A stretch of 64,000 nucleotides of DNA from Kiritimatiellia bacterium (GCA_050950285.1 JBMNHG010000002.1:248296-312295), one strand, 5' to 3'. Shown: positions 21,000-50,997, numbered from the stretch's first letter. Made by a program: numbers and translations. Notes: generated from the letters alone by a model not told the origin.

Positions 21000-21501
21000 G
21001 TGTATCGGGTGCTCGGCATCGACACCTCGCTCCGGTCCAGCGGGCTGGCCGTGGTGGAGGCCGAAGGGCAGCGGTTCCGCGCCCTTTGCTACGGGCTGGT
21101 GAAGAATCCGCCGGCACGTCGGCTTTCGGCCTGTCTGGGGCATATCCGGGAGGACATCGCCGGTCTGGTCGAGGAATTCCATCCCGATGCGGCGGCGATC
21201 GAAGGCATCTTCTACGCGAAAAACGTCCGTACCGCCATGATTCTCTGCCATGCGGCGAGGTGTCGCGATCGACACCTGTTCGGCTGCGGGGCTCCCCATC
21301 TACGAATACGAGCCGCGGCGCGTCAAGCAGGCGGTGCTTGGCCATGGCAATGCGACGAAGGCGCAGATCCAGCGGATGGTCGCCACCACGCTCGGCCTGC
21401 CGAAGATTCCGCCCGAAGACGCCGCCGACGCCCTGGCCATCGCCCTCACCCATCTCCACAACCGGAACCGGATTGCCCTGGGCTTGGACAAGCCGCTCTA
21501 G
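21000..21501 (+). CDS. ruvC: Crossover junction endodeoxyribonuclease RuvC (one apparent frameshift ~21255)
   Basis: VLGIDTSLRSSGLAVVEAEGQR....YG, then after the shift ..GVAIDTCSAAGLPIYEYEPRRVKQAVLGHGNATKAQIQRMV...PEDAADALAIALTH. A GTG start near 21000-21009 is inferred. Confidence 0.75.
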
Positions 21502-21586
21502 GCAACTCCGGCGGAATCTCGGACACCATGAAGCCCTCCCCTCCCGAACTGCGCGCGAACGACAAGGTATTCCGGGTGGTCGACGC

Positions 21587-23286: not shown

Positions 23287-23907
23287 CTAGGCGAGGAAGG
23301 GATTGAAGGCCCGCTCGCGGGCGATGGTGGTGCGGGGCCCATGGCCGGGGCAGACGACCACCTCGCCGGGAAGCGTCATCAGCCGTGCCAGCGAGTCCTG
23401 CTGCCGGCGCATGTCGCCGCCGGGAAGGTCCGTGCGCCCCACCGATCCCGCAAAGAGCGTGTCGCCGGCGAGCAAGACCTTCTCCCCGCCCAGGTAGTAG
23501 CACACCGAGCCGGGCGAGTGTCCCGGCGTATGGAGCACCGCAATCTCCAGGCCGCCGACGGAGAGCGCGTCCCCGTCGTTCGCGGCGCGAAGACCGGCCG
23601 GCACACCGGGGACGCGCAGGTAGGGCGGGATGCGGTTGACGGGCGTGAAGGCCCACTCGGCATCGGCGGGATGGAGGTAGACGGGGAGTTCGGGCGTCGC
23701 GGCGAGCAGGCCGTCCAAGGCGGCGATGTGGTCGATGTGGCCGTGCGTGAGCAGCGCGCCCGCGAGGCGGATGCCCAGCGATCGGGCGGTTTCAAGGATG
23801 TGGTCGGCCTCGTCGCCCGGATCCACCACCAGCGCCTGGGCGGGATCCTTCCAGAGCAGTGCGCAGTTCTCCTCGAACGCGCCGACCGTGAGCCACCGGA
23901 TGTTCAT
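23287..23907 (-). CDS. MBL-fold metallo-hydrolase (GloB-like)
   Basis: THGHIDHI zinc-binding motif and HTPGHSPGS. The ATG overlaps the stop of the upstream giant gene (ATGA). Confidence 0.8.
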   Translation of the reverse strand: MNIRWLTVGAFEENCALLWKDPAQALVVDPGDEADHILETARSLGIRLAGALLTHGHIDHIAALDGLLAATPELPVYLHPADAEWAFTPVNRIPPYLRVPGVPAGLRAANDGDALSVGGLEIAVLHTPGHSPGSVCYYLGGEKVLLAGDTLFAGSVGRTDLPGGDMRRQQDSLARLMTLPGEVVVCPGHGPRTTIARERAFNPFLA

Positions 23908-30145: not shown

Positions 30146-30196
30146 GGGAAACCTTTCCAAAGAGCGCAAAAAACGAAGCGGCGGCGAAGAGGCGTC

Positions 30197-35058: not shown

Positions 35059-37698
35059 TCAGTATCGTGGCCTGCCACGGGGAGGTTGACGTGAAGAAGG
35101 CACATCCCAATTGCGGCACTTCCTGCCGTCGGCATCGAAAAAACGGATGCGATGCAGGTTCGTGTCCAGAAACTTCAGCCGGAGGGAAAACCGCCGGCCT
35201 GCGCCGCATTCGCCGCCAATCGCTGGCAATGGGATCCGGACTTTATAGGTTGGCTTCCTGCAAAACTGGTAATCGTTCAGATCCATTCGCGCTGCCAATG
35301 AGGTCATGTCCGACTCTGCAATGCGGGTCCCGTTCAAGTCAAGTACCTCGACACGCGGGAACATGCCTGAAAGTCGAGCTTGCGAAAGCGCATTGTTGAC
35401 GCTGAAGAGCAGTGAACGTGAATCCTCGTCATGTGCAATGTTCCAAACCACCAGTCCGTTCTTGAAATGGAGCGACGGCGTGGCGACCGGATGGAACGAG
35501 GACAAGGAGAAATCCGTTCCGGAAACGGAGCGGAAGCGCAGCCTGTTGGGGATGTGATGGAAGTTGCAGTTGGCAGGGATGGGGCACCGAATGCCATGCC
35601 GCGCGTCCTCGAAGGAAAAAAGGCCAAGCGGGAATCCATCCAAGTCAACCTCGACAAAATCATCCGCAGGTTCATCCCCCGGCGGGCAATCGATCGAGAA
35701 ATCAATGACATTGTACCGACGGAGGATGTCGGGCCTGATGAACCGGAAGATTTCGTTCCGGGACACTTGCGGCGTGATGATCTGGTTGACGATGTAGCGA
35801 TCGTCTTCGACAATCGTCGAAAGATTGTCTTGGGAGAATCTCGTGCCATTCCATGGGGAGTCTGGCGATAGAAACGCCTTGTCGACGACAACCAGTGGGG
35901 TTGGCCAGACCATTTGCAGCAAATCGATGCCTTCGAGCCGGGATTTCTCATCGTCCGCATTGACTTTCGCACATATTTTTCGCGAAAGGTCCGGGAACGT
36001 ACCCTCCCAGGCGAAAACAAAGAAGTTTTTGTTTCGGGCAAGCTGCAGCATTTCACGCGAGGTGATTTCTCGATCGTGCATCGGGAAAACCGCGAGAACA
36101 GGCGGTTCGGGAAGGTTGTCGATATATTGGACCGAGGGCAGTCTGTCGATCGGCTCGAACCGGTGCAGGCCCGCACGGGCGGGGGTATGGGTGTCCGGCA
36201 GGCAGACTGATTCCACCCACACCGAGGCGAAAGCCAAGACAGGAATCGCCAGGGAGGCGAATCCCCGCAACTGCCTGTTGCGGACGCGACGGACAGAATC
36301 GAGCCATGAATCGAGTCCTCGTGCCGCCGCTACGACCATGAACAGCAGGACAAAGAACGAGAATCTCGATACAACGCGGAAGCCCCATAGCGCATGGCAT
36401 TGCCGATAGAGAGTCCAGTATATCCGGTTTTGAGCGACCGTGCCGATCGATCCGACGCAGAAACTGGGGCCAAACGAAAAAACCATGGCAAATAGGGATG
36501 CGCATCCCAGCCCCTTGAAAAAACAATCGTTCATGTCGCATCCGCGAACATCGAAGACAAAGACAAAGGCGACCGCCGCCGCGCACGCAATGTAGACGGA
36601 ACATACGAATGCGTTGATGCCAAAGGGCGTTTCCCCCGCGACATTTGCAGATACGCCTTGAACCAGAAACGCACACAAGGCCACGAGCAGGGTCCACAGG
36701 ATTACGTTCTGGGCCACGAATCGCTTGCCCGATCCGCGAACGGATGCGACGTGTGAACGAATCAACTCCCACGATGCCAGCAGGAAGACCGCGAGGGTGG
36801 GATATGCGCATGCTTCGTTTTGGATCGTCTTGTCGAATGGCGGCCATTTTACCCGATAGGGCGGCACGATATAGCTGGCTGGTTCCAGCACATGCCGTTT
36901 GACTTCCCCGATTTTCCGGACGAGCATGTTGCTGTCAAGGACCCTCGCATAGGGCCAGAGGAAATACCCTGCCAGAAGGATTCCCAGTACGCCTGCAACC
37001 GCGAGCGGGAGCCAGAACTTCCCGAACGATGGAAGTAATTCCTTCCAGGATTTGCGGAACAAGGGAATAACGATGAATGGCAGGAGGAACAACAGGAATA
37101 CCGCATGGTACAGCTCGGACATTGCCTGCAGCCACAGCGACAGGCAGCACGACACCGCATGGCCAATGCTTGGCCGCTTGAAGTAGCGAACCAGAAACAG
37201 CAGGAAGAGCATCACGCCAAAATTCAACTGCATGTTGAATTCGACGATATAGCGCAACTTGTACGGCAGGATCGTAAAGATTGCCGCCAACGTGAAACTC
37301 GCAATGCGCCCGACTCCCAACTCCTTCAGCAGAAGCCACATGCATGTTCCAGACAAGGCCCAGAACACGAGGAAGCAAATATTGTACGAGAGAATTGGGC
37401 CCGCATGGAAGACTCCCGCCAGGAAGGCGGCAAGGAAGGCGGGCGGATAATGCAACCCTTCGAAATAGAATCCCGAAGGATAGGGATAGAACATGTTAGT
37501 ATTGCCGTCAACCGGCAGAAGACGCCCGTGAAGGAGTTCCCGGGCCGTAAAATCCAGGCGCCAGGCATGCAATGGAGGATCCCAGTGGGCAAAGAGGCTG
37601 TCCCTGAAAGTCATGCACCACGGCCACGTCGCAAGGACAATGATGGCCGTCAATTCCAGAGTGACCAGAAGAAAAGGCAATAGGCGTTTCTTCTCCAT
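35059..37698 (-). CDS. 879-aa polytopic membrane protein (possible GT-C-like glycosyltransferase) with large C-terminal soluble domain; low-GC gene
   Basis: More than 12 hydrophobic helices in the first ~500 aa, then a ~370-aa hydrophilic domain. The base composition is clearly AT-richer than the flanks. Confidence 0.5.
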   Translation of the reverse strand: MEKKRLLPFLLVTLELTAIIVLATWPWCMTFRDSLFAHWDPPLHAWRLDFTARELLHGRLLPVDGNTNMFYPYPSGFYFEGLHYPPAFLAAFLAGVFHAGPILSYNICFLVFWALSGTCMWLLLKELGVGRIASFTLAAIFTILPYKLRYIVEFNMQLNFGVMLFLLFLVRYFKRPSIGHAVSCCLSLWLQAMSELYHAVFLLFLLPFIVIPLFRKSWKELLPSFGKFWLPLAVAGVLGILLAGYFLWPYARVLDSNMLVRKIGEVKRHVLEPASYIVPPYRVKWPPFDKTIQNEACAYPTLAVFLLASWELIRSHVASVRGSGKRFVAQNVILWTLLVALCAFLVQGVSANVAGETPFGINAFVCSVYIACAAAVAFVFVFDVRGCDMNDCFFKGLGCASLFAMVFSFGPSFCVGSIGTVAQNRIYWTLYRQCHALWGFRVVSRFSFFVLLFMVVAAARGLDSWLDSVRRVRNRQLRGFASLAIPVLAFASVWVESVCLPDTHTPARAGLHRFEPIDRLPSVQYIDNLPEPPVLAVFPMHDREITSREMLQLARNKNFFVFAWEGTFPDLSRKICAKVNADDEKSRLEGIDLLQMVWPTPLVVVDKAFLSPDSPWNGTRFSQDNLSTIVEDDRYIVNQIITPQVSRNEIFRFIRPDILRRYNVIDFSIDCPPGDEPADDFVEVDLDGFPLGLFSFEDARHGIRCPIPANCNFHHIPNRLRFRSVSGTDFSLSSFHPVATPSLHFKNGLVVWNIAHDEDSRSLLFSVNNALSQARLSGMFPRVEVLDLNGTRIAESDMTSLAARMDLNDYQFCRKPTYKVRIPLPAIGGECGAGRRFSLRLKFLDTNLHRIRFFDADGRKCRNWDVPSSRQPPRGRPRY

Positions 37699-37967: not shown

Positions 37968-37992
37968 GGGCGCATCTCCGTTTTGCTACCGG

Positions 37993-39249
37993 CTACGCTG
38001 GGACTGCTGCCTGGGCGCAGCAGTGGTGGAGCTCCCCGTTGACGTACCATATGTACGCCTTCAGGAATGACTCGAGCCCGACTGCGGACCAGAACTGGCC
38101 GCACCGCTTGAAGCGGTTCTGCAACTGCGAACAAAGCGATTCGACCGCGCCGCTTCCGATGGGGCGCCCCAGCCTGCGCTGCCTGAGGTAGTCCATGTGG
38201 TCCTTGTGCTTCATGAAATATTCCGTCTCGCGTTGCACGGCCTTCGCGTCCCAGCATCCATCGCCTTCGTGCGCCTTGAGGATATCGAGTAGCGTCTTCC
38301 CCCCGTACCGCTTGAGCTTCCTGCAACGCTCCGAAAGCCATGCCTTTCGCGCGGGCTCGTCGTCCGGGAAGAGCGCCGCGGCGAGCGCGCCGAGATGCTC
38401 GGTGGCGTGGTAGTAGTCCAGCGTCCCTTCGGCGATGGTGGCGAACCTGTCCTCGAAGATGTTCCAGAGGTAGGTGCCGCCGTCCATGACGATGTAGACG
38501 AACTTCGCCTGCATCATCCCCATCCGCCGCGCCTCGAATTCGACCTTCCGGCCGAAGTCGACCGGATCCGTGCCGGCCGGCATGCAGACTGCGTGCTTGG
38601 TGACAAGCACGCGCCTTCCCCCGCTTGTCTCCGCGGCGTGGGCGAGCTTGAAGATTGTCGCCGACTTCATCTCGCGCCATTCCACGCGCTCGGCGGCTCT
38701 TGGGTTGCGCTTCCCCCATCCCGCCCCGCGGTGCCGGGCGAACCAGCCGTCCATCATGATCACCAGCGTGTCCTCGCTCCCCGCCGCCTCCTCGCAGAGC
38801 CGGGGAAGCTTCCCTTCCTCGCAGCGCCCGGCGATGTCCCTGACGACGTCCATGACCTTGTCGTCGCTGACGGGGCACCCCCATTCCCTGCAGAGCTTCG
38901 AGGCTTTCTCGAACGATCCCGTCTCCATGGCCGTCGCCGCGATCCTCATCTCGAACGCGGGGGAGACGCAGCCGCGCCTGCCGCCGAAAAAGCGCAGGCG
39001 CATCGGCGTCTCGTACCGACCGGACGACCGGCAGAGCCCGTTCTTCACTTTCAGTTCAACCGGCCCGAACCCGGTCGCGACCCTCATGCCGATCGTCCTG
39101 GTCTTGACGAGCGGCTTCCCGTCGCTTCCCTCGGAGGGGGTGCTCTCCGCGAGCCTCTGCAGGTAGTCTTCGTACTCCCTGCGGGCCAGTTCCATGTGTT
39201 TGCGCTGGATTGCCTTTTCGGCTTCGATCAGGTTTTTGCAGGTTTCCAT
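37993..39249 (-). CDS. Transposase, ISKra4-family-like
   Basis: 418 aa with a characteristic ..LDYYHATEHLGA.. region and an RNaseH-like DDE core. Lies inside the IR-bounded element. Confidence 0.7.
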   Translation of the reverse strand: METCKNLIEAEKAIQRKHMELARREYEDYLQRLAESTPSEGSDGKPLVKTRTIGMRVATGFGPVELKVKNGLCRSSGRYETPMRLRFFGGRRGCVSPAFEMRIAATAMETGSFEKASKLCREWGCPVSDDKVMDVVRDIAGRCEEGKLPRLCEEAAGSEDTLVIMMDGWFARHRGAGWGKRNPRAAERVEWREMKSATIFKLAHAAETSGGRRVLVTKHAVCMPAGTDPVDFGRKVEFEARRMGMMQAKFVYIVMDGGTYLWNIFEDRFATIAEGTLDYYHATEHLGALAAALFPDDEPARKAWLSERCRKLKRYGGKTLLDILKAHEGDGCWDAKAVQRETEYFMKHKDHMDYLRQRRLGRPIGSGAVESLCSQLQNRFKRCGQFWSAVGLESFLKAYIWYVNGELHHCCAQAAVPA

Positions 39250-39259
39250 TGTCTTTCCT

Positions 39260-39315
39260 TCCTTTCGCGCTTGATACTATAGCATTCGAATGCTATAGCA
39301 TCAAGCGCGAAAGGA
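39260..39315. repeat. 56-bp near-perfect palindrome between transposase and accessory ORF
   Basis: tcctttcgcgcttgatactatagcattc|gaatgctatagcatcaagcgcgaaagga, with a single mismatch (a39276/c39299). The right arm contains the AAGGAG Shine-Dalgarno (39311-39316) of the accessory ORF. Confidence 0.7.
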
Positions 39316-39323
39316 GAAACCAG

Positions 39324-39620
39324 ATGGAAAAAGACACCTCAGGCGATGAAGAGAAGATTCGTGCCATCAAAGAGCAGATCGTGGCTCTCGGGCCCATGCG
39401 CCCCGGACGGCTCAGCGTGCAATACCAAAAGCCCAAGGAGAAGGCCGGGCCGTTCTACCAGATCAGCTACACGATCCAGAAGCGAAGCCGCTCGGACTAT
39501 GTACGCGAAGCCGATCTGGAACGTGTGAAGGCAGAACTCGAAAACTACCAGACGTTCAAGCGCCTTTGCGAAGAACTGGTTCTGGCCTCGCTGGCACTGG
39601 CAAAGTCGCGACAACGCTAG
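39324..39620 (+). CDS. IS-borne accessory ORF (99 aa), unknown function
   Basis: Good SD 8 nt upstream. Charged, coiled-coil-like protein (MEKDTSGDEEKIRAIKEQIVALGP...). Inside the IS boundaries. Confidence 0.45.
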   Translation: MEKDTSGDEEKIRAIKEQIVALGPMRPGRLSVQYQKPKEKAGPFYQISYTIQKRSRSDYVREADLERVKAELENYQTFKRLCEELVLASLALAKSRQR

Positions 39621-39683
39621 CCCCTCAAAACCTGCCCCAGTCTTCCCGATGGACGAGGTGGGGAGCAAAACGGAGATGCGCCC

Positions 39684-39800: not shown

Positions 39801-41693
39801 ATGGCGGGTTGTTTCCGAAAGTTGCATACGCTCCGCTCCGCGCGGCTCGCCGCGGTGTCGGCCGGCGCCGGGCTCTCCCCCGGCGGCACGAACACCCTCC
39901 GCCTGCTCCGCGGTTGCTTTTCCGTCAGCCCGCCGCCGCTCGACGGGGCGGACGCCGCGCGGCTTGCCGAGGCGGTCCGGGCCAAGCCCGCCTGTTCCGC
40001 CGCCCTGTGCGGCCTGCTGTCCGGGCGCCGCGAAGGCTGGCTGGCCGAGGACGTCCGGGCGCGGCATCTGCTGGACTCCGGGAAGGCCTCCGAGGCCGCC
40101 GCCGCGTGGGAGGCCATGCTCCGCCGCCGCCGCGGCCCGCCCGACCGCATCGCCTTCGCGCGCTGCGAGGCGCTGGCCGCCTGGAAGCCGGGGAAGGGCA
40201 TCGAGGCGCTGGAGGAGTGGCTGGAGCGCTACAAGGACTCGCCGCTGCGCGAGCGCGCCGCCGCCTGCCACGCCCTGCTGCCGGCCCGCCATGGCGACCC
40301 GGCCGAGGCGGCATCCCGCCTCGGGGCCTTCCTCGGGGAATACCCCGGCAGCCGCTTCGCGCCCGAGGCCCGGCAGGCGCTGGCCAGGGCGCGCGGCGCA
40401 TCGGACCGGCTGGAACAGCTCCGGGCGGCGCAGGCCGCCAAGGAGGAGAGGCGCCGGCGCGACCCGGCGTCGGCCGACCTCGAACGCGCCGAGTCGCTCC
40501 TCTCCCAGGGACGCCACGCCGACGCCGAAAAGGCCTTCCTGTCCTTCCGCGACCGCCGCCGCCATCCGCTGTGGGGGCGCGCCTGGCATGGCCTCGGCAA
40601 AGCCCGCCACGCCCGGGGCGACACGCAGGGCGCTCTCGCCGCCTGGGACGACCTCTGGCGGCGCTCGCTGGCCGACACCAACGTCCTGTGCGCCGCCCGG
40701 GCCCGCCGCGCGGCGGGCGACGCCTGGCTCGAGGATCTCGGCGAGCCGGCCCGCGCCCTGAAGGCCTACGACGAAGCCGCGTCCCGCACCGACTTTTCCG
40801 ACCCCGCCTTCGACCTCAACCGCGGGCTCGCCCTGCTGATGCTCGGGCGCGCCCCGGAGGCCGCGGCCCTCTTCACCCGCCGCCGCGACGCGTCCGCCGG
40901 CGACAAGGCCGAGTTCCTGCGCTGGGACCGCCTCGCGAAGGAGTGCGCCGCCGGACGCCTGGCGCCGCCCCCGCGCGGCCTGCTCCCCGACCAGCGCCGC
41001 GCCCGTACCGACCTGGCGATGGCCGACGCCCTCCTCGCGGCCGGCGAGCCGGCCCGCGCCCTGAGGCTCTACCGCCGCGCGTCCGCCCCCCTGGCGGGCC
41101 ACGAGGGGGCCGACCGGTGCGACCTGGGCATGGCGCTCGCCCTGGCCGCCCTCGGCCGGCCGAAGGAGGCGCTCGCCCTCTACGGGCGTTTCACGGGCGA
41201 ACACGGGCGCAGCCCGCTGGCCGCCGGAGCCCTGCTCCGCGCCGGCACGCTCTGCGCATTGCCCCGCGTGAACGACTTCAAAGGCGCCTGCCAGTGGTTC
41301 GCCCGGGTCGTCGAAAACCACCCCGGCACGCGCGAGGCCGAGGCGGCGGAGTTCTATGCCGCCAAAAGGCTCCACGACCCCTTCGACGACGACCAGCGAA
41401 ACGACCGTCCCCGATTCCCGCATGGCAAGCCCGTCCATCCCGACATCACGCTCTCCCGACATCACGCTCCATTGGGAGGCGGGGAACCCGCTCGCCCTGC
41501 TCGGGGGAACCACGGTTTACACGAACAAAATCGAGATCGACGCCGGGGAGGTCGACTGGCCCCTGGATTACGCCGTCATCCCGCGTCATTCGGCCATTTC
41601 CTTCGCCATCGCCGCCGAGGGCCAGGCCGCCGAGGGCGGCAAGGCGGTGGACATCGTCCACGGGCGCGTCGTCGACGTGGACCTCGACGTTGA
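39801..41693 (+). CDS. TPR-repeat protein; probably the N-terminal part of a single TPR-trunk-toxin gene interrupted by a 16-bp duplication
   Basis: TPR-like helical repeats throughout. The last real residues (..KPVHPDITL) match the N-terminus of module 2 (KPVNPHITLHW), and the tail after nt 41455 is out-of-frame read-through. Removing one 16-bp repeat unit fuses this frame to 41422..43458. Confidence 0.6.
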   Translation: MAGCFRKLHTLRSARLAAVSAGAGLSPGGTNTLRLLRGCFSVSPPPLDGADAARLAEAVRAKPACSAALCGLLSGRREGWLAEDVRARHLLDSGKASEAAAAWEAMLRRRRGPPDRIAFARCEALAAWKPGKGIEALEEWLERYKDSPLRERAAACHALLPARHGDPAEAASRLGAFLGEYPGSRFAPEARQALARARGASDRLEQLRAAQAAKEERRRRDPASADLERAESLLSQGRHADAEKAFLSFRDRRRHPLWGRAWHGLGKARHARGDTQGALAAWDDLWRRSLADTNVLCAARARRAAGDAWLEDLGEPARALKAYDEAASRTDFSDPAFDLNRGLALLMLGRAPEAAALFTRRRDASAGDKAEFLRWDRLAKECAAGRLAPPPRGLLPDQRRARTDLAMADALLAAGEPARALRLYRRASAPLAGHEGADRCDLGMALALAALGRPKEALALYGRFTGEHGRSPLAAGALLRAGTLCALPRVNDFKGACQWFARVVENHPGTREAEAAEFYAAKRLHDPFDDDQRNDRPRFPHGKPVHPDITLSRHHAPLGGGEPARPARGNHGLHEQNRDRRRGGRLAPGLRRHPASFGHFLRHRRRGPGRRGRQGGGHRPRARRRRGPRR

Positions 41694-43458
41694 CGCCAAC
41701 CACGACGGCAAAATTGATGACGCCGACGAGCCCTTGGAGGTGGACCCCGGCGGCTATGTGTGCGTCGGAACCAACAACCTGACGCCGGTCACGCTCAAGT
41801 TGGAGCCCGTCGGCCTGCCCGGCAAACTGACCCTCTCGGCGACGATGGGTGGGGACCGAATCCGCATCTGGAAAGACGCCGGGCGCGCGACCGAGGTGAT
41901 ATTGACCAATGGCTGCGCCCAGGTGGCTCCCGGCACGCTCTACGTCGAGGGGGTCACCAACAGCGCCGCCCTCCGCGACGTGGAACTCCGCCTCGAATAC
42001 GACGAGAACCCGGAGGGCCAGAATAACCGCCTCTTCAAGTGCGAGGACAGGGTGAAGCTGACGGCCGTGAAGGTGGACTTGGATATCGACTCGGACAACA
42101 ACGGAGCCATCGAAGAAGCAGACGAGGCCCAAGAACTTACCGAACCGGGCAAGTTGATCTATCTGAACCATGATGACGACAACAAGAACGACATAGAGGA
42201 CAAGGCCGAGAACACTGCAATTGTCACTGATGAAGATGACCTCCAACCAATCAAGCTTGCATTTTCACCAAACATCGCTGGCGGAAAGATAATCCTTGCT
42301 GCTCCAAGTGGTGGGTCTCGGATTCAAGTTTGGGGAAACTCCACAAAAGGTGTTGCGAGTGAGAAAGTTGACCTGCCGAAGACGTGGACAATAGGCACTG
42401 ACGCTGTCCCTGCAACACTCTATGTCGAGGGCATCGACCCCGGTGCTGCTCAATTGAAATTGGCTTACGAGGTTAACTCGGTCGAAGTTTGCAAGGACGA
42501 GATCAAGTTGGGCATCGTCAAAATTGAGTTCAAGGAACGGGGCGATACAAAATACGGTTATGATAACGGGACCGTTGACAACAACCCTGTTCCCAAATCG
42601 GTTGACACTCCCCCACAGAAGTATGACTGGGTAAACGTTGACAGAGACAACAAGACGACAGATGTGGACGTAGAGATTACTCCGGCGTCGTATGCCAAGT
42701 ACGTTAATTTTATTAGCAGCGATGACGCAAAAACCACATGCAATCCTGTCGCAGCAACTGCAAATCCGCAGAAATTGACCATAACCGGCACAGCCTCGGG
42801 GACATCCCATGTCCAGACGCGACTTGGAACCACAACAGGTGCTAAAGGCACTCGGTTGAATGTGGCCTGTTACAAGCTGGCAGCCCTTAATGTCAATTTC
42901 TATAAGGTAAGTGCCACGGGGCTTGCGCCTGATGGTACCACGGCGGAACAATTCGAAAGTGGCGCGAATGCGTTCCTCAAGCGGGGTGTCAGTGAACTAT
43001 CACTGACCGACAACGGCACCACAATAACTAACTACGATGACAACGCAAATTCTAAACTAGATATCGATGCAACGGCGGGGGATGGCGGAAGTGAATGGGT
43101 CAAGGTGACAGCGGCACTAGGGGCTCCTGTTGGGATGAAACTGCTTCATGTAAAGGCCTTGCGCGTTAACATCGGGGGAACATGGGTCAACGCAACAGGC
43201 TTACGCTATGGTGATTGGACGCTGGTTTCTGACGAGTCAACGAGCAAAGTCAGAACTGTCGCCCATGAGATGCTTCACAAGCTAGGACTGAAAGATACAG
43301 GCCCCAGTGGGAGCAACACTGCAAACATCATGTACTATATGAGCAATGGCACAAAGTACTTTGTGGGGTATTTCAAAGTGGAAGGCGTTCAGACTGGGTC
43401 TGGCACGTCTTACACCCCAAAACAACACGAGCTACAGTGGGAAATGATTTATCGGTGA
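41422..43458 (+). CDS. Polymorphic-toxin-like module 1: conserved trunk + C-terminal HExxH (zincin-like) region
   Basis: Trunk ..GKAVDIVHGRVVDVDLDVDANHDGKIDDADEPLEVDPGG...LTLSATMGGDRIRIWKDAGR..EVILTNGCAQVAPGTLYVEGVTNSAALRDVELRLEYDENP. Reiterated ~100-aa modules. C-terminal ..VAHEMLHKLGL.. (43264-43278). Confidence 0.65.
   Translation: MASPSIPTSRSPDITLHWEAGNPLALLGGTTVYTNKIEIDAGEVDWPLDYAVIPRHSAISFAIAAEGQAAEGGKAVDIVHGRVVDVDLDVDANHDGKIDDADEPLEVDPGGYVCVGTNNLTPVTLKLEPVGLPGKLTLSATMGGDRIRIWKDAGRATEVILTNGCAQVAPGTLYVEGVTNSAALRDVELRLEYDENPEGQNNRLFKCEDRVKLTAVKVDLDIDSDNNGAIEEADEAQELTEPGKLIYLNHDDDNKNDIEDKAENTAIVTDEDDLQPIKLAFSPNIAGGKIILAAPSGGSRIQVWGNSTKGVASEKVDLPKTWTIGTDAVPATLYVEGIDPGAAQLKLAYEVNSVEVCKDEIKLGIVKIEFKERGDTKYGYDNGTVDNNPVPKSVDTPPQKYDWVNVDRDNKTTDVDVEITPASYAKYVNFISSDDAKTTCNPVAATANPQKLTITGTASGTSHVQTRLGTTTGAKGTRLNVACYKLAALNVNFYKVSATGLAPDGTTAEQFESGANAFLKRGVSELSLTDNGTTITNYDDNANSKLDIDATAGDGGSEWVKVTAALGAPVGMKLLHVKALRVNIGGTWVNATGLRYGDWTLVSDESTSKVRTVAHEMLHKLGLKDTGPSGSNTANIMYYMSNGTKYFVGYFKVEGVQTGSGTSYTPKQHELQWEMIYR
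41439..41470 (+). repeat. 16-bp tandem duplication (cccgacatcacgctcY x2) at the TPR/trunk junction
   Basis: Units at 41439-41454 and 41455-41470, with 15/16 identity. Deleting one unit gives an uninterrupted ORF 39801..43458. Confidence 0.7.
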
Positions 43459-43475
43459 GGAAAGGTGCTTTACAG

Positions 43476-44417
43476 ATGAGAACGTTCTTGGCATGTTTTA
43501 CTTTCTTCGCGTTCCAGGCCTTGGTGCGCGCAGAACCTGGCACTGTCGCAGAGGTCCTGAATAACCTCCGGAAGGGAGATGCCCGGGGGTTGCGGACTGA
43601 TCAGTACACAAATGCGGCGAGTGCCGTTGCCTTTCTGGAGAACATCGGTGTTCTGGAAGACGAGAAGATCCGACTGAAGGTGGTGCGGTTCTCGGCAACG
43701 CTGATGCGTCGGGCGGCAAGAGCGGGCTCGCAGCAGGACGAACAGAACGTAGAAGCCTTCACTGGCCAGATGGTGAAGATCCTTAAGGCTGATCCATCTA
43801 GGCGTATCCGGGAAGAGGCCGCGAAGAGTCTTCTGGAAATGGTCTCCCCGCGTGTTCTCGATCGCTATCACGCCGTTCTACGTCTTGCGGCCGAGGAAAG
43901 GAAGGACATCGCTACGCTTCTTGTCTGCGCATCACTGCATTCCTGCGATGCAACGTGGTTGGCGGAATTGGTGCGTACAATGAAACCGGAGTCCCGGATG
44001 GAGAAGCGCCAAATCGACAGCATTCTGGCGCGGTGCGGGGATCAGGCTGCAACAGATCGTCTCATTGATGAAGCAGGTCATGCGCAGGGAATGAGCGATG
44101 TTGAGATTGGTGAGTTGGTCGCCGCTTTGGCCTTTGTGCCTTCCGAACGGGTTCAGATGTTTCTTGGACTAGGTCTTCGCTCTGACACTGTTGTTTCACT
44201 ACCCGGGGGAGGCGCGATTCCCTGGCGCAACTGCTGTGCCCGTTCTTTGGTCCGAATGCACAGGCACGACGAGAGTTTTCCTGTAAAGAGGGACGACTAC
44301 ATGTATAGTGACGATGAGCTTGACAGAATCGAACAGTGGAGTGTGGTTACTCTCGGCATTGCCCCCCGTAGTGGAACACGGAGGAGCTTGAAAGTGACAC
44401 CAGGTATTCATCAGTAG
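43476..44417 (+). CDS. Signal-peptide partner protein 1 (candidate immunity; HEAT/armadillo-like repeats)
   Basis: Starts 18 nt after the module 1 stop. Signal peptide (MRTFLACFTFFAFQALVRA), alpha-helical repeat composition, and AT-richer DNA than the core genome. Confidence 0.55.
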   Translation: MRTFLACFTFFAFQALVRAEPGTVAEVLNNLRKGDARGLRTDQYTNAASAVAFLENIGVLEDEKIRLKVVRFSATLMRRAARAGSQQDEQNVEAFTGQMVKILKADPSRRIREEAAKSLLEMVSPRVLDRYHAVLRLAAEERKDIATLLVCASLHSCDATWLAELVRTMKPESRMEKRQIDSILARCGDQAATDRLIDEAGHAQGMSDVEIGELVAALAFVPSERVQMFLGLGLRSDTVVSLPGGGAIPWRNCCARSLVRMHRHDESFPVKRDDYMYSDDELDRIEQWSVVTLGIAPRSGTRRSLKVTPGIHQ

Positions 44418-44531
44418 TGGCACAGGCATAGGTTCGCGGCAAGAGCGAAGCACCCGGAACCCTCTCTACTGGGTGTCCCCTCCGCTCTAGTTGTCTTTGG
44501 CTCATGCAATGATTTCATTGTCGTCTTTCAA

Positions 44532-46253
44532 ATGAACATCTGGCACAAAGAATCTGTAAAACCCGTGAATCCGCACATCACGCTCCACTGGGCGGGGGTG
44601 CGCGAACTGTGCCTTCTGCACGGGGACGGGACGTTGTTCCCGAACGGCGGGCAGATCGACTCGCGCGCCGTTCCCTCCTGGCCCCTCCGCTTCCGCGTCG
44701 GGCCGCTCGCGCCGACGACGGAGTTCGTGGTGCGCCTTTTCGGCGAAGCCGACAACGTGACGGGCGAGAAGGCGGTGGACATCGTCCACGGGCGCGTCGT
44801 CGACGTGGACCTCGACGTTGACGCCAACCACGACGGCAAAATTGATGACGCCGACGAGCCTTTGGAGGTGGACCCCGGCGGACTGGCCTGCGTCTGCACG
44901 AACAAACTGACCCCGATCATGCTCACGCTTCAGCCCGCCGGACTGACCGGCAGGCTGACCCTCTCGGCAACGATGGGAGGGGACCGAATCCGCATCTGGA
45001 AAGACGCCGGGCGCATGATCGAGGTGGTATTGACCAATGGCTGCGCCCAGGTGGCTCCCGGCACGCTCTACGTCGAGGGGGTCACCAACAGCGCCGCCCT
45101 CCGCGATGTGGAGCTGCGCCTCGAATACGACGAGAACCCGCCGAACCAAAACAACCCCCTTTTCAAGTGCGAGGACAGGGTGAAGCTGACGGCCGTGAAA
45201 ATAGATTTTGTCACTCCCGCCGGTGATCCGGTAAATGCCGCCGTGCAGTCGGGCGACGGGCAAAACGAATTCACCTACTCGACAGCCACTCCCGGCGTTC
45301 TGACGATGAACCTGAAGGCGCACGTCACACCGAGCGGTATCGCCAACCAGATCAAGGGCCTATGCCTGTTTACGGTTGATATGATCGCCGGTTCCACCTT
45401 GGCTTGGGGCTCGTCGAATCCTAACGGCAAGCCGACAGCGAACGGTGATGACCTGTTGGCGACGGTCACGTTCACCGGTTTGCCCGCGAACAATTCCGAC
45501 TTCGGGGCCAAGAAGGCCGCTATCCACTTCAACGCCAGCAAGCAGGATGAAGCGAACTACGAAGTATTCTTTCCCCGAGATGTGGCGAACAATCCTGGTG
45601 GTTCTGATCCAAATTGGTTCTACTACTGGGGTCAGGTTTATGTGAATGCGAACGTTCAATATGTGGCCGCTGCGGCGGCCGGACGCGTACCTGCCATGAC
45701 AGGCTGGACGTACAACTCTGTACCAAGCAAAACTCGCATTGAAATCGGTAGCGGACATCCCGCAAAATACAAATCCTATGGCATCGGAGAGGAAGCGTCG
45801 GGCATTGATCGCTACATAATGACGGGAATACATGAGGAGAAGCATGTGGCACAGATTGCTGCCGCAGATGCTCTTCTGCCTACCAGCGGTGCCGATTCCT
45901 TTCGCTTCGGTTGGTCATGGAATCAATCCACTCATAATCATTGGACAAAGGGGCCTGATGGGCAATGGGGTGTTGCCGGAGTTGATGATGACGGGAATGG
46001 TGTAGTTGATGACGCAGCTGTGGCACCACCCTTTGAACCTGGGAACGGTGACGACATCAGCCTCGACCGCGCAACATGGCCGTGGTGGCCAAATACGTGG
46101 ACACTGCCCGGCGGAGTTTACGCCACCATCCATCCCATTGAAGGCGAGGCCGTCAAGGCTGCGGATGACGCAATGAATGAAAACGACTATGCGCCCCAAG
46201 ATTGGGGCAAGCCCGGCAAGAACCACAAGACGGTAAACAAGTGGGATGATTGA
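44532..46253 (+). CDS. Polymorphic-toxin-like module 2: same trunk, unrelated C-terminal region with HEEKH
   Basis: Nucleotides 44773-44883 differ from 41640-41750 by 1 nt. The trunk diverges after ..FKCEDRVKLTAVKIDF. C-terminal ..GIHEEKHVAQ.. (45831-45845). Begins only 10 aa before the trunk homology (MNIWHKESVKPVNPHITLHW). Confidence 0.65.
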   Translation: MNIWHKESVKPVNPHITLHWAGVRELCLLHGDGTLFPNGGQIDSRAVPSWPLRFRVGPLAPTTEFVVRLFGEADNVTGEKAVDIVHGRVVDVDLDVDANHDGKIDDADEPLEVDPGGLACVCTNKLTPIMLTLQPAGLTGRLTLSATMGGDRIRIWKDAGRMIEVVLTNGCAQVAPGTLYVEGVTNSAALRDVELRLEYDENPPNQNNPLFKCEDRVKLTAVKIDFVTPAGDPVNAAVQSGDGQNEFTYSTATPGVLTMNLKAHVTPSGIANQIKGLCLFTVDMIAGSTLAWGSSNPNGKPTANGDDLLATVTFTGLPANNSDFGAKKAAIHFNASKQDEANYEVFFPRDVANNPGGSDPNWFYYWGQVYVNANVQYVAAAAAGRVPAMTGWTYNSVPSKTRIEIGSGHPAKYKSYGIGEEASGIDRYIMTGIHEEKHVAQIAAADALLPTSGADSFRFGWSWNQSTHNHWTKGPDGQWGVAGVDDDGNGVVDDAAVAPPFEPGNGDDISLDRATWPWWPNTWTLPGGVYATIHPIEGEAVKAADDAMNENDYAPQDWGKPGKNHKTVNKWDD

Positions 46254-46274: not shown

Positions 46275-46952
46275 ATGAATAATCGATTAGTGACAATGTT
46301 GCAGGCGATTGTGTTGATGGTTATATTGCTAACCACAGGTCGAGTGTTTGCTGGAAATGCCGAAGTGGAAAACATAGACATGGTTGATACGAAACAGTTG
46401 CTTTCAGCGCAGACGATGGAGCGGAGTCAGGCGCTGGACAGGTTGACTGCAAAATATCGCGAGGTCTCGGCGTCGCTCTTAAAGACACTGGAGGAGGCCA
46501 AGACCGAGTTTAGAACGGATCGCCGTTATCATTCGCCTCTTCACTCCGCCATACTGGCAGTCGATGCATGGCAGGTGATTGATGCCGATGCGCTTCTCCT
46601 TTCGATGGTTGACTACGAGTTAGATCCAAGTTCCTTGCCATTGGGAATGGATGTACCAGGCGACTATTTTTATCCCGCAGCCAAGACGTTGGTCCGCTTG
46701 CGCGTGGACATGGCGAAAGTGGAACGAGCGCTTGGAGCCACAGAGGACCCGAAAGCGCTGAGGATATTGACATGGGTGTTACTTGAACGAGGAGAAGACG
46801 TCGAGAAGGCGAAGATGGCTTTAGCCGATGCAAGCGGCAAAAGTCATGGGGCCACGGAAAAGCGGAATATCAGCGAAGCGCTAGAGCTGCTCAACAACCC
46901 TTCGGAGTTGTTGCCGATGCCGTCGAGGGGTGACCATCCTTCATCGAAGTGA
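46275..46952 (+). CDS. Signal-peptide partner protein 2 (candidate immunity)
   Basis: Starts 22 nt after the module 2 stop. N-terminal MNNRLVTMLQAIVLMVILLTTGRVFAG. Low GC, no similarity to partner 1. Confidence 0.55.
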   Translation: MNNRLVTMLQAIVLMVILLTTGRVFAGNAEVENIDMVDTKQLLSAQTMERSQALDRLTAKYREVSASLLKTLEEAKTEFRTDRRYHSPLHSAILAVDAWQVIDADALLLSMVDYELDPSSLPLGMDVPGDYFYPAAKTLVRLRVDMAKVERALGATEDPKALRILTWVLLERGEDVEKAKMALADASGKSHGATEKRNISEALELLNNPSELLPMPSRGDHPSSK

Positions 46953-47186: not shown

Positions 47187-48941
47187 ATGGAATCAAGCCT
47201 CTGCATGAATGGCGCGAATGAACGGACGGCTTGGGAATATGCCGTGTGTAGCGGCCAAGACAACCACGACGACGAGCCGCCGGAGGAGGATCCCGGCGGC
47301 TACGCCTGCGTCTGCACGAACAAATTGACGCCGCTCAATCTGAAGGTGCAACCAACCGACCTGCCCGGCAAGGTCAGACTCTCGGCGACGGGCGGCCAGC
47401 GCATCAGAGTCTGGGAGAACGCCGGCCGCACCGGCGAGGTGGTATTGACCAATGGCTGCGCCCAAGTGGCGCCCGGCACGCTCTACGTCGAGGGGGTCAC
47501 CAACAGCGCCGCCCTCCGCGACGTGGAGCTGCGCCTCGAATACGACGAGAACCCGCCGGGCCAGAGCAACCCCCTCTTCAAGTGCGAGGACAGGGTGCGG
47601 CTGGTCGTCATAAAAGTGGACTTAGACATTTGGAACGGGGGAGCCGATTTGGACAACGGTGAGGCTGCCGGCCCCCAGGGGGCACAGGTCCCGGACGCCG
47701 ACGAGGAATCCGTCGGAGCATACATCCTCGTCAACTGGGATGATGACGACGGTGACGGCAAAATCAATGGCACCGGAAGTGGCTGGATATCCTTTCCAGT
47801 GCCAGATCTCGACGAATCAACGGCCATTACCGACGAGGATAATCTAGCGCAGTTGAAACTCAATCTTACGCCGTTACTTGATCTTGGAACGGTTGAACTG
47901 GAAGTGAGTGGTACCGATGCGGGCAAGATCAAGCTCTGGACCGAGTCAACCAAAGGAACGGTGGTCACACTCACATCCAACAAGAAGACATGGAACCTAT
48001 CAAACCCGACGCAGAAGAGCGAGTTTCAGAACTTAATGGCCAACAGCCTGTGGATCGAGGGAGTTGACGCGGGATCGGGTGAACGGGCTGCAACCTTTAC
48101 ATTGTGTTTCAAGGACAGTGGTGGAACTGAAATCTGCAATGACGTTAACAAGGCAACGTTGGTGATGCTGAATCTTGCGAACGTCGCTGGTAGAGAGGTT
48201 GACAATGATGCTCTTGCGGAGAGAGGGCATACGGCAGTAGTCGGTCGCTATGATGGCAGCTGCACCAAGGCCGATTTGCTCAATGCCGCGCACTATACAC
48301 TCTATGAGGCAGATGGGGGTGGAGATTGGGCCGGCACAGAACCAGGACCACGTGAAGCCCTTCTTACTCATGTTACGGCCAGACCAGGCCGCGAGTTTTT
48401 TGGTTCATTGTCACCCTTCTTGACGTCGTACTACAACAGCTCGTCAATGCCTAACACAGCGCAGGGTTACAGAACTCGTTTGAAGATATTGCTGGTGGCC
48501 AGGCGCTTGATTGATAACACCGCCAGCATAGGATATACAAAGTTCAACGCTGTCCTACCCGGAAACTGGAACGGCAATTTGGGCACGATTACAGATCTCC
48601 GATGCGACGGGTTCGTCGAAGTCTGCTATGAGTGGTCGGGCGTCAATTCGTGGGGAAGGATCGCAGGAGGTGGAGCCCGGTACAGCATCCTCGTTGCAGG
48701 GAATCAAGATGACCATAATGAATGGGTATGGGGAGACGTCCCGCAAGATGGAGCGAGTGACTTCTGGGCATGGCTGATGCCGATAACACAGATCGGATAT
48801 GCCGACACCTATATTGACAGCCATTATCCCCCATACACCAACGGTGACTTCGACTATACGGCGAACAATTTTGAAGGGACTTTCTGGGAGAGTGCCTTTT
48901 CCTCTCAACAACTCGTCATGCCAACGCTTTCAAATCCGTGA
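47187..48941 (+). CDS. Polymorphic-toxin-like module 3: 5'-truncated trunk + third unrelated C-terminal region
   Basis: Trunk homology starts abruptly at ..DNHDDEPPEEDPGGYACVCTNKLTP (the ~80 aa found in modules 1/2 are missing). ..VVLTNGCAQVAPGTLYVEGVTNSAALRDVELRLEYDENPP is identical to copy 2 at the protein level. The C-terminal half is unique with no HExxH. Confidence 0.6.
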   Translation: MESSLCMNGANERTAWEYAVCSGQDNHDDEPPEEDPGGYACVCTNKLTPLNLKVQPTDLPGKVRLSATGGQRIRVWENAGRTGEVVLTNGCAQVAPGTLYVEGVTNSAALRDVELRLEYDENPPGQSNPLFKCEDRVRLVVIKVDLDIWNGGADLDNGEAAGPQGAQVPDADEESVGAYILVNWDDDDGDGKINGTGSGWISFPVPDLDESTAITDEDNLAQLKLNLTPLLDLGTVELEVSGTDAGKIKLWTESTKGTVVTLTSNKKTWNLSNPTQKSEFQNLMANSLWIEGVDAGSGERAATFTLCFKDSGGTEICNDVNKATLVMLNLANVAGREVDNDALAERGHTAVVGRYDGSCTKADLLNAAHYTLYEADGGGDWAGTEPGPREALLTHVTARPGREFFGSLSPFLTSYYNSSSMPNTAQGYRTRLKILLVARRLIDNTASIGYTKFNAVLPGNWNGNLGTITDLRCDGFVEVCYEWSGVNSWGRIAGGGARYSILVAGNQDDHNEWVWGDVPQDGASDFWAWLMPITQIGYADTYIDSHYPPYTNGDFDYTANNFEGTFWESAFSSQQLVMPTLSNP

Positions 48942-48958
48942 AAGGTAGGAAACAAATC

Positions 48959-49735
48959 ATGAGGAAGACTCTCTTACTCTTGTGCGCCTCGCTCGCATTT
49001 TCCTTGGTGGGGCTTGCAAATGATGATGCTTTGTTGAAAGCTCTTGCAGCCGGAGATCGCACGGCCAGGAAGAATGCGGCAATGCAGATCGAGCAACGGT
49101 CAGTGAAAGACCTGCTCGCTCTTGCGGAAGAAAGCATTAAGAGCGAGAGCCTTGAACCTTCGGCAGCCATCTATGTCTTCCACCAGATACTGTGTGTTGC
49201 CTCTGAAAAGGGATTCACTGTTCATGATGCCGCTGCGTTGATCAGAATGCCTGGTGCTTCCGAGTTCAGGCAGGCACTTATAGACTGGATTAGAGAATTT
49301 GGAACCAAGAGAATTAATTCCGACGACGCTGCTGGAATGCTTCCTGAGATAGATGCGTATTTCCAGTCCAAGCAGGAGACTTTGCGATTCAGAACAACTG
49401 CACACAAACTGTCACGCGATCTGGCATGGAAGATCCGCGTCGACTTGAACGAGAAGGAGAACATGCAACCTGATCAGCGTGAGAAGATGAAGCAACTTCT
49501 CTGTGGGCATATCGATCACGTCTGCCAAGTTGTTGCCGACAGCACCGAAGCTGATGAAGCTGTTGAGGTATTTGCAGGTTGCGTCCCGTACTATCGCCTC
49601 TATGCTCGCGAGGGACTCTATCAAGATGGCGACCTTCAAGATGCGCTTCAACAAGCTGCCAATCAGAGGAACCGTAGCCCAAAGACGAAGAAGGCTATTC
49701 AGGCAATGATCGCCGAGCTGTGGAAGGCAGAATAG
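48959..49735 (+). CDS. Signal-peptide partner protein 3 (candidate immunity)
   Basis: MRKTLLLLCASLAFSLVGLA signal peptide; lies in a 3'-terminal overlap/abutment with module 3; low GC. Confidence 0.55.
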   Translation: MRKTLLLLCASLAFSLVGLANDDALLKALAAGDRTARKNAAMQIEQRSVKDLLALAEESIKSESLEPSAAIYVFHQILCVASEKGFTVHDAAALIRMPGASEFRQALIDWIREFGTKRINSDDAAGMLPEIDAYFQSKQETLRFRTTAHKLSRDLAWKIRVDLNEKENMQPDQREKMKQLLCGHIDHVCQVVADSTEADEAVEVFAGCVPYYRLYAREGLYQDGDLQDALQQAANQRNRSPKTKKAIQAMIAELWKAE

Positions 49736-49920: not shown

Positions 49921-50997
49921 ATGTATCTCAAATGTCACTCGCGTCACAAAGACGGCAAAACCCACCACTACTGGAACGTCATGGAGCGTGTCGGCGGCGC
50001 CGACGGGCGTCGCTTCGAGCGCCAGGTGCTCTGTTTGGGAGAGTTGGGCGTCGAGGAGAAGCGCGACTGGGAGGCTCGCATCGAGAGGGTTTCAGGCGGC
50101 GGGCGAAGACCCGGGCGACTGCTTTTCGAGCTGCCCGAGGAGCCGCCCGACGAGCGCCTCGCCGAAGACCGCGCGCCATCCAGGCCCGAAGCCGTCCGAA
50201 TCCGCCTTTCAGGGTTCTCGCTGAAGAACCCGCGCCAGTACGGCGGCTGCTGGCTGTTCTGCACGCTCTGGGGGAAGCTCGGGCTCGACGCGTTCTGGCT
50301 TCCGCTCCTGCCGGCCTCGCGCAAGGGCACCCCGCGGGTTGACGTGCTCAAGATCCTCTGCGCCAACCGGCTCCTCGACCCATCGAGCGAATGGCGCGTC
50401 CACCGGGAGTGGTTCAAGCGCTCGGCCATGGGGGACTTGCTCGGCTGCGGGGAGGAGCTCTCGGCCAAGGACACGCTCTACCGCTACCTGGATCTTCTCC
50501 TCGAGCACAAGGACTCGTTCTTCCAGCACCTGCGCGGGCGCTGGACGGACATGTTCAACGCCTCGTGCGACGTGCTCCTCTGCGACCTAACGAGCACGTA
50601 CTTCGAGAGCGACCCGCCCTTCCCGCCGGGGGACAAGCGCATGCACGGCTACAGCCGGGACCATCGCGGCGACTGCGTGCAGATCGTCATCGCGCTGGTG
50701 ATCACGCCCGACGGGCTCCCCGTGGCCTACGAGGTCATTCACCACAGCCGGGAATCGCGCATCGAAAGCCACGTCTTCGTCGCCTTCATCGCCTACAGCC
50801 TCTCGGCGATCCAGATGATCGACGTGCACTTCCCCATCGGCGACGCCCGGGATTTGGTCTTCTCCCGCTACACCACGCCGGAGGCGGACCAGAAGCTGAT
50901 CCTGGACGCTCTCGGATGGGAGCTTCCCCCGCAGAACCCGCCGAAAATCACGACCGGAGGGAAAGTCGAAACTGGCCGTCTGGCGACAGACTTTTAA
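49921..50997 (+). pseudogene. IS1634/IS4-superfamily transposase, C-terminally truncated remnant
   Basis: Hallmark N-terminus MYLKCHSRHKDGKTHHYWNVMER and the first DDE block LLCDLTSTYFE. At 358 aa it lacks the distal catalytic region of ~550-aa IS1634 transposases. Confidence 0.55.

Follow-up and report, generated by a model that had tools for sequence, protein, structure and literature searches.

The window analysed here is a 64,000-nucleotide stretch of the genome of a Kiritimatiellia bacterium (GCA_050950285.1 JBMNHG010000002.1:248296-312295), and our subject is an island at 41.3-49.8 kb of this window that consists of three two-gene cassettes. In each cassette, a gene for a large protein (M1, M2 or M3), composed of a front that is shared between the cassettes and a C-terminal tip that differs, is followed by its own gene for an exported-looking partner protein (I1, I2 or I3); in all three cassettes the gap between the two open reading frames (ORFs) is at most 21 nucleotides, or the frames overlap. 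The G+C content at 42-50 kb is 51-61%, as compared to ~65-71% across most of the remaining window. A previous reading of the same DNA, made without database searches (hereafter, the sequence-only reading), had taken two of the tips for candidate zincin-type toxins, with the partners as periplasmic immunity proteins. The features of the island are as follows:

41356..43458, plus strand: M1 enzyme gene (ORF list, three-module alignment, comparison with the sister contig L001, see below)
41634..42086, plus strand: shared scaffold DNA repeat, copy 1 (repeat families D1-D3, protein alignment); other copies at 44762-45214 and 47266-47629
42874..43455, plus strand: M1 metzincin-like catalytic domain (tip residues about 107-300)
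43294-43296, plus strand: candidate third zinc ligand of M1, Asp
43330-43332, plus strand: candidate Met-turn Met of M1
43476..44417, plus strand: I1, 313 amino acids (aa), signal-peptide-like N-terminus, helix-rich, faint HEAT-like signal
44532..46253, plus strand: M2 enzyme gene (ORF list, three-module alignment)
45576..46250, plus strand: M2 C-terminal HExxH domain (model, conserved columns)
46275..46952, plus strand: I2, 225 aa, signal-peptide-like N-terminus, helix-rich, no Cys
47187..48941, plus strand: M3 enzyme gene, 5'-truncated, with ~the first 115 scaffold residues missing; two calcium-loop/immunoglobulin (Ig)-like domains
48159-48938, plus strand: M3 tip without HExxH; invariant GH (48225-48230) and LRC[DE]xxxEVCxE (Cys at 48603-48605)
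48938..49735, plus strand: I3, 265 aa from GTG 48938, overlapping the M3 stop codon by 4 nucleotides (alternative ATG at 48959), signal-peptide-like N-terminus, helix-rich

The three copies of the scaffold repeat, as recovered by a repeat search of the window, are 76-90% identical to each other, and the repeat is likely to serve as a recombination substrate for the exchange of tips. Its product is a calcium-loop plus Ig-like domain, for which a weak match to PAD_M (E 0.0046) was obtained from one relative. Beyond the shared block, the M1, M2 and M3 proteins diverge completely in the three-module alignment, the tips being mutually unrelated in sequence, and, across the relatives, the scaffold bears many different tips. 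The scaffold is confined to Kiritimatiellia and Lentisphaerae, with the closest relatives found in metagenome-assembled genomes (MAGs) of Kiritimatiellia and Lentisphaeria; in a GTDB scan of 185,579 species genomes, only two loci with the scaffold were detected, and a scan of viral contigs yielded no match. None of the six cassette proteins has a significant match in Pfam, NCBIfam, PADLOC or PHROGs, and a scan of the locus for promoters and terminators gave a result no better than that for shuffled sequence. We are inclined to regard the island as a horizontally acquired array of cassettes with a polymorphic-toxin- or bacteriocin-like build.

The M1 protein comprises, in this order, an N-terminal 'HPDITLHW' region, two calcium-loop/Ig-like scaffold domains, a Big_2-like domain and the metzincin-like tip; its probable internal start is the ATG at 41422, and a near-twin (JGI protein P0001, 710 aa) is 99% identical. 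The motif HEMLH is encoded at 43264-43278 within the ORF 41356..43458, in the context KVRTVAHEMLHKLGLKDTGPS, and HEEKH at 45831-45845 within the M2 ORF 44532..46253, in the context YIMTGIHEEKHVAQIAAADAL. Both motifs thus lie where the sequence-only reading had placed them and, as it had held, are set in otherwise unrelated tips, as borne out by the three-module alignment. They do not appear to be chance occurrences, each being invariant in its family. When each protein was shuffled and the HExxH motifs were counted per trial, at least one was obtained in 0.9% of the trials for M1 and in 1.6% of the trials for M2, and all six translated frames of the 64-kb window yield only 7 in total.

The extended motif of M1 in the window is HEMLHKLGLKD. 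Every homologue of the M1 tip keeps the signature AHExxHxxxLx[D/H]xGPxGxNTxNIM, with the H, E and H invariant and the third-ligand position occupied nearly invariantly by Asp (His in P0009), while the Gly position of the canonical HExxHxxG varies (G, D, K, S). The Met of NIM(Y), located 12 residues past the Asp, is also nearly invariant; it falls in a region modelled at a predicted local distance difference test (pLDDT) score below 50, where its position under the metal site is not readable. By structure comparison, the modelled tip, a twisted beta-sheet with helices and with HExxH on the active-site helix, has the metzincin catalytic-domain fold, and its structural neighbours are protein endopeptidases. 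The tip belongs to no curated family, the best matches being the sub-threshold ones to Reprolysin_4 (E 0.047; 13.8 bits against a cutoff of 22) and TIGR03952 (E 0.084), and a PDB search with its sequence retrieved nothing meaningful. From the model, we conclude that the M1 tip is a metzincin-fold protein and a putative zinc endopeptidase. As compared to the known members of the metzincin clan, such as the pappalysin-type mirolysin and ulilysin, the adamalysins/ADAMs and archaemetzincin, M1 stands apart in lacking Pfam and NCBIfam membership, in not conserving the Gly of HExxHxxG and in having Asp (His in one member) as the candidate third ligand; snapalysin is a metzincin with an Asp third ligand. 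The M1-tip family has ~12 known members, all on Lentisphaeria/Kiritimatiellia-type contigs, and is unclassified. Interrupted copies are common in this family, with further cases in L006 and L007: in a Lentisphaeria MAG (L002:5089-7527), an M1-type gene is cut by an in-frame stop into a 302-aa part that bears a signal peptide and a 508-aa part (P0004), the unbroken form of the protein being represented by P0002 (818 aa).

The M2 protein starts with a 'HITLHW' region, which is followed by one calcium-loop/Ig-like scaffold domain, an Ig-like subdomain (45240-45575) and the HExxH domain (45576-46250). The model of its tip is a confident one (pLDDT 94.3, predicted template modelling score 0.91): residues 1-112 form the Ig-like subdomain, after which a short strand leads to a long helix (188-210) that carries HEEKH, and this helix is followed by a long loop region that is well predicted and contains invariant Asp residues. 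In an alignment of 83 sequences, the invariant columns are H198, E199, H202, D321 and G326. A candidate third ligand is the conserved Glu (E301 of M2, encoded at 46140-46142, on helix 299-311), which is found in a [PD]xExx[AC] context 18-26 residues ahead of the invariant DWxxPG (46200-46217, a few residues before the C-terminus) in nearly all members of the family. The M2 tip is, judging from the conserved columns and the model, probably a Glu-liganded zinc hydrolase. The catalytic half of M2 matches no solved fold, zincins included, so that the label 'zincin', which the sequence-only reading had proposed to check on predicted structures and which the fold confirms for M1, rests in the case of M2 on motifs and secondary structure.

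The family to which the M2 tip belongs is large. An exhaustive HMMER search yielded 1,929 clusters (at 50% identity) at E <=1e-3 and 546 clusters at E <=1e-30. HExxH is present in every homologue from the first search that has a complete C-terminal domain; of the 13 homologues that lack it, none has DWxxPG, and most align with only part of the query (about 11-50%). All 103 further representatives in which the domain is complete have HExxH, and in each of them the domain comes to an end no more than 25 residues before the C-terminus. The proteins of the family span 250 to 2,242 residues. Many full-length members begin with classical signal peptides, and the N-terminal companions in long members include TSP3, transglutaminase, RCC1, beta-helix, Ig, PKD and LTD domains. 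Pfam has no family for M2 or for the 83 aligned members, only isolated matches at E 0.027 or weaker (Peptidase_MA_2, Tox-MPTase2, DUF6782); NCBIfam has no match to M2, and PDB searches by single sequence and by profile returned nothing meaningful. A tip identical to that of M2 (100%) is encoded in another assembly (P0011). At a further locus (P0133, JGI 3300056388), a gene for a 4,627-aa Laminin_G/PA14/TSP3 protein is followed by genes for a 280-aa protein with a faint HEAT signal and an M2-family protein and by a 135-aa ORF; a Y1 transposase is encoded close by, and the locus may represent one more array of cassettes.

These observations bear on the possibility that the HExxH motifs are incidental and non-catalytic, or that the island is a phage tail-fibre/chaperone or an anti-phage defence locus. 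The missing fold match for the catalytic half of M2 would fit the former view; however, the H, E and H are invariant over hundreds of diverged sequences and M1 has a metzincin fold, whereas the phage and defence variants find no counterpart in PHROGs, PADLOC or the viral contigs. We consider all these options very improbable.

The ORF of the third module (47187..48941) contains no HExxH, in accord with the sequence-only reading. Its tip is shared with two other proteins (P0015 and P0019), the GH and LRC[DE]xxxEVCxE motifs being invariant, and has no match in Pfam or, even with a profile search, in PDB. Guessing from these motifs, the M3 tip could possibly be a hydrolase of the His-then-Cys order, similar to the permuted papain/NlpC-P60-like enzymes.

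The partners I1, I2 and I3 show no mutual relatedness by BLASTP. Their signal peptides, which the sequence-only reading had assigned to all three, were judged from N-terminal composition and Kyte-Doolittle hydropathy, and their richness in helices from composition. In each N-terminus, a basic stretch precedes a hydrophobic core, followed by an AxA-like site: MRTFLACFTFFAFQALVRA before E in the ORF 43476-44417, MNNRLVTMLQAIVLMVILLTTGRVFAG before N in 46275-46952 and MRKTLLLLCASLAFSLVGLA before N in 48938-49735. The maximal 12-residue mean hydropathy is 1.9-2.9 in the partners and at most 1.0 in M1-M3. All three N-termini are thus consistent with export.

The pairing of tips and partners recurs in other genomes. 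In the Lentisphaeria MAG, the M1-type tip gene P0004 is directly followed by a gene for a homologue of I1 (41% identity, E 9e-71). Homologues of I2 are found directly downstream of M2-type tips of 70-88% identity in L006 (where the I2 homologue is 56% identical, E 5e-87), L013, L015 and L016. The more distant M2-type tips (42-55% identity), which come from a metagenome contig, a Verrucomicrobiae MAG, a Polyangiaceae MAG and Sorangium cellulosum, are followed by a second family of partners that are homologous to each other. The tandem modules of L015 (3-3859) and L016 (1108-7262) use another N-terminal scaffold ('VVFAWTSKGDLWH...'): the first module carries an M2-type tip with I2, and downstream of it lie a conserved 106-aa ORF and additional modules whose tips differ. 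Finally, the metagenome contigs L012 (902-1746) and L014 (368-1283) have a complete I2 homologue (protein identity 98% and 81%, respectively) but, of the adjacent M2-type gene, just the final 47-73 codons; the breakpoints in the enzyme gene differ and correspond to window positions 46111 and 46032. Intact I2 genes beside 3' stubs of the enzyme gene make the pattern of orphan immunity genes, which speaks against the partner being a dedicated chaperone.

Polymorphic toxin systems, as described by Zhang, Aravind et al. in 2012, include zincin-like toxin domains (Tox-MPTase1-5, Tox-ALF, Tox-HopH1), and among them HExxH toxin domains, HEAT-type immunity proteins and export by a signal peptide only have been described (PMC3482391). 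The island and its relatives resemble these systems in that a variable enzymatic C-terminus is attached to a conserved N-terminus, a small tip-specific gene follows immediately downstream, as shown by synteny, and tandem 5'-truncated cassettes share a block of homology; furthermore, a toxin-type domain is found on many N-terminal architectures, the tips carry HExxH, the partners look like helical-repeat proteins, and relatives appear to be exported by a signal peptide only. Specifically, a shared N-terminal region is combined with diverse C-terminal domains and, conversely, one C-terminal domain with diverse N-terminal regions, and 5'-truncated cassettes (M2, M3), orphan I2 genes (L012, L014) and arrays (L015, L016) are all present. 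There are also differences: no match to a Tox-MPTase or Imm family in Pfam is above the threshold (the best is that of a single member, at E 0.045); RHS, filamentous haemagglutinin, PAAR and LXG modules are missing, as are pre-toxin HINT or peptidase domains; the scaffold is of the calcium-loop/Ig-like (PAD_M-like) type, and the partners look exported.

Since the shared recombinogenic front, the tips on many fronts, the tip-specific partners, the truncated cassettes and the orphan partners match the definition of a polymorphic toxin, the logic of polymorphic toxin/immunity systems appears to fit the locus better than that of a protease with its chaperone. The best-supported reading, towards which we cautiously lean, is a set of toxins with periplasmic immunity; it rests entirely on comparative genomics. 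In this scenario, the enzyme would be exported and would damage envelope or periplasmic proteins of competitors, while the producer and its kin would be protected by the partner, which would bind the tip that it matches in their periplasm and block it. The zinc binding, proteolysis, toxicity, neutralisation, target and export route of the cassette products are what we infer from these comparisons. Of the toxin/immunity pairs proposed in the sequence-only reading, the pairing itself fared well, with tip-specific partners recurring in other genomes and orphan partners surviving; the copies in the window, by contrast, fit it less well, being truncated or frameshifted and free of signal peptides.

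Several observations weigh against this interpretation. By hydropathy, M1, M2 and M3 of the window lack a signal peptide, which many of their relatives have (of the Sec type). Neither the proteins of the window nor the 37 long members of the M2 family contain any of the trafficking domains RHS, PAAR, VgrG, LXG, TPS and HINT, and the companions of the M2 domain, namely TSP3, Ig, PKD and beta-helix, are equally typical of ordinary surface or secreted enzymes. No components of a type VI secretion system (T6SS) are recognized by Pfam in the 64-kb window. On the structural side, the C-terminal subdomain of M1 with the putative Met-turn has the low pLDDT mentioned above, and M2 has the orphan catalytic half; the toxicity, binding and activity ascribed to the tips and partners are read from sequence. 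Lastly, every partner examined from the Planctomycetes-Verrucomicrobia-Chlamydiae (PVC) type of loci bears a signal peptide and the enzymes of the PVC relatives carry one too, whereas no signal peptide is seen on either enzyme or partner at two myxobacterial loci; hence, the location of the partner may simply track that of the enzyme.

The last point weakens the argument of the sequence-only reading that a periplasmic partner indicates a target in the envelope. The LAS and M23 peptidases of the cell wall are not known to use HExxH as their motif. As to peptidoglycan, which had been suggested as an example of such a target, nothing supports it, because the structural neighbours of M1 are protein endopeptidases and VgrG2b, discussed below and the only T6SS (type VI secretion) toxin with HExxH characterised as acting in the periplasm, showed no peptidoglycan hydrolase activity (PMC6899460); a peptidoglycan hydrolase was therefore rejected as a candidate.

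The same observations could be accounted for if the cassettes encoded ordinary secreted or surface hydrolases, used in nutrition or in matrix remodelling, each with a dedicated periplasmic inhibitor or secretion chaperone to shield the producer or help in export, and no interbacterial antagonism were involved. There are precedents for such pairs: serralysin has the periplasmic inhibitor Inh/AprI, and the secreted metalloprotease CpaA of Acinetobacter has the adjacent dedicated chaperone CpaB (PMC4713064; PDB 6o38). As in these systems, where the partner binds the enzyme in the envelope of the producer, a gene for a putative zinc endopeptidase is followed here by a small gene for an exported-looking partner. 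Moreover, many relatives of full length combine a Sec signal peptide with N-terminal domains resembling those of adhesins or enzymes, the localisation of the partner follows that of the enzyme (signal peptides on both in PVC bacteria, on neither in myxobacteria), and no known toxin-delivery domain was found. However, CpaA/CpaB and serralysin/Inh are single stable loci, with no tandem arrays, exchangeable tips or orphan partners, and their partners are unrelated in sequence to those described here. The main point against this explanation is that an intact, highly conserved I2 outlives the enzyme gene at two independent breakpoints, where a chaperone or a self-inhibitor would be useless. In addition, three tandem cassettes with a recombinogenic scaffold and unrelated tips and partners are unlike housekeeping secreted proteases, and 5'-truncated cassettes are frequent. 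We hold such a function to be rather unlikely and continue to prefer toxins with periplasmic immunity.

A toxin could also be delivered by another route, with the tips acting as T6SS cargo effectors, the partners as periplasmic immunity proteins, and the T6SS itself being encoded elsewhere in the genome. A precedent is the H2-T6SS effector VgrG2b of Pseudomonas aeruginosa, whose C-terminal zinc metallopeptidase is toxic in the periplasm and is countered by the cognate immunity protein PA0261 (PMC6899460). Similarly to M1 and M2, VgrG2b has a metallopeptidase-family domain at the protein C-terminus; unlike them, it is delivered as part of the T6SS spike, whereas the window locus has no VgrG or T6SS, and it shows no sequence similarity or listed structural similarity to M1 or M2. 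In Sorangium cellulosum So0157-2 (CP003969.1, L005:5049-12945), a gene for an M2-type protein without a signal peptide is located between a conserved upstream gene of 260 aa and a downstream partner gene, 1.8 kb from genes for VgrG, PAAR and DUF4123 (DUF4123-FHA). This arrangement, with no signal peptide and with a conserved small upstream gene, follows the layout of T6SS cargo. The three-gene unit recurs in the Polyangiaceae MAG (L010), but no VgrG is found there in the 5-kb flanks examined; the linkage was seen at the one Sorangium locus only. Furthermore, Sec signal peptides, for which T6SS cargo has no need, are found in most PVC relatives, the 37 long members include no fusions to PAAR, VgrG, MIX or FIX, and, as noted, Pfam detects no T6SS component in the window. 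Delivery by a T6SS appears improbable for the island.

A further comparison is with modular bacteriocins that act in the periplasm, such as colicin M with Cmi and pesticin with Pim, which combine N-terminal uptake or receptor domains with a C-terminal killing enzyme and an adjacent gene for an exported immunity protein. Colicin-type producers likewise make a toxin without a signal peptide. The cassettes of the window are, however, unrelated to these bacteriocins in sequence and contain no lysis gene, and the enzymes of the latter are a phosphatase or a muramidase rather than HExxH proteins.

The condition of the window copies deserves separate consideration, and it involves the features at the borders of the island:

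37968..39683, minus strand: insertion sequence (IS) element with a UPF0236-type transposase (37993-39249), just upstream of the island (Pfam; absent from L001)
39801..41438, plus strand: TPR-repeat 5' extension of the M1 gene (Pfam TPR_16, TPR_6 and TPR_2; blastn against L001; sequence)
49921..50997, plus strand: ORF at the downstream edge of the island, transposase-like by eye, without a Pfam match

The island is bordered by IS elements. A blastn comparison of the window with the sister metagenome contig L001 revealed 99.9% identity and three features that are present in the window only, namely the IS at 37968-39683, a 1509-bp in-frame TPR-coding segment at 39856-41364, within the 5' part of the M1 gene, and a 16-bp tandem duplication. 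Judging from this pair of sequences, the locus is polymorphic within the population. In L001, the equivalent of the M1 gene starts at the position that matches 39801 of the window; in the window, the TPR part and the M1 part are in different frames because of the 16-bp duplication (41439-41454/41455-41470). Fusions of TPR repeats to the scaffold are found elsewhere as well (P0013, P0025, L008). M2 starts at its 'HITLHW' region and has no upstream in-frame start, because each frame in the ORF list opens with the earliest start codon that follows a stop. In longer relatives, the point where M2 begins is preceded by a signal peptide, by an additional N-terminal domain and by a 'PPFRVTVPSVDVDW' region. 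With their 5' parts and signal peptides missing, the window copies look like 5'-truncated cassettes, including one frameshifted gene; probably, not all of them are expressed as complete proteins, and they may be silent or defective cassettes.

It is conceivable, if doubtful, that the window copies are decaying remnants (pseudogenes or silent cassettes), which would be compatible with either a toxin or a hydrolase function of their intact ancestors. The frameshift that separates M1 from its 5' part, the absence of ~115 N-terminal residues from M3, the start of M2 downstream of the signal peptide and first domain of its relatives, the bordering IS elements, the three indels that distinguish L001 and the split or stop-interrupted homologues in L002, L006 and L007 all point in this direction. 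On the other hand, all six ORFs, those of the enzymes and those of the partners, run uninterrupted for 225-700 codons and the catalytic motifs are conserved, and M2 and I2 are identical or nearly so in another assembly (100% for the P0011 tip, 98% for the L012 I2).

Outside the island, a Pfam survey of the remaining window for a secretion system found only housekeeping genes, one TadE-like protein and large unannotated ORFs. Two very large ORFs without a Pfam match are located at 23907-31028 (minus strand, 2,374 aa) and at 35062-37698 (minus strand, 879 aa); the latter encodes many hydrophobic segments and directly adjoins the island. Elsewhere, single plus-strand ORFs join a KsgA-type RrnaAD, a partial AdoHcyase and a thioredoxin (12459-15101), a DHOD Fe-S domain and DHO_dh (15443-16435), and YebC and RuvC (20322-21590); these are either true fusions or artefacts of crude ORF calling in a high-GC genome.

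Work on interbacterial toxins has dealt almost entirely with Proteobacteria, Bacteroidota and Firmicutes, and our literature search found no paper that describes such a toxin system in Kiritimatiellota. Should the cassettes encode hydrolases with dedicated inhibitors, the finding would be routine. If they encode toxins, the island would represent a compact set of three enzyme/partner pairs from a phylum rich in uncultured organisms. The M2 domain, which is combined with differing partner families, with or without signal peptides across phyla, would then provide a natural experiment on immunity versus chaperone function. Real potential is confined to one aspect, the large undescribed family of C-terminal HExxH domains without a solved structural relative: with a confident predicted structure, no Pfam model and no solved counterpart, it would be a candidate new peptidase family. 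We suggest, as a tentative and by no means probable extension, that the M2-type proteins are an undescribed family of C-terminal HExxH enzymes in Kiritimatiellia, Lentisphaerae, Verrucomicrobiota and Myxococcota, which in PVC bacteria would act as interbacterial toxins via a Sec-dependent bacteriocin-like route, on a lineage-specific calcium/Ig scaffold, and would be matched by at least two unrelated families of immunity proteins. If this holds true, the family would add both a new peptidase family and a new scaffold for the delivery of polymorphic toxins, in a phylum in which none has been characterised.

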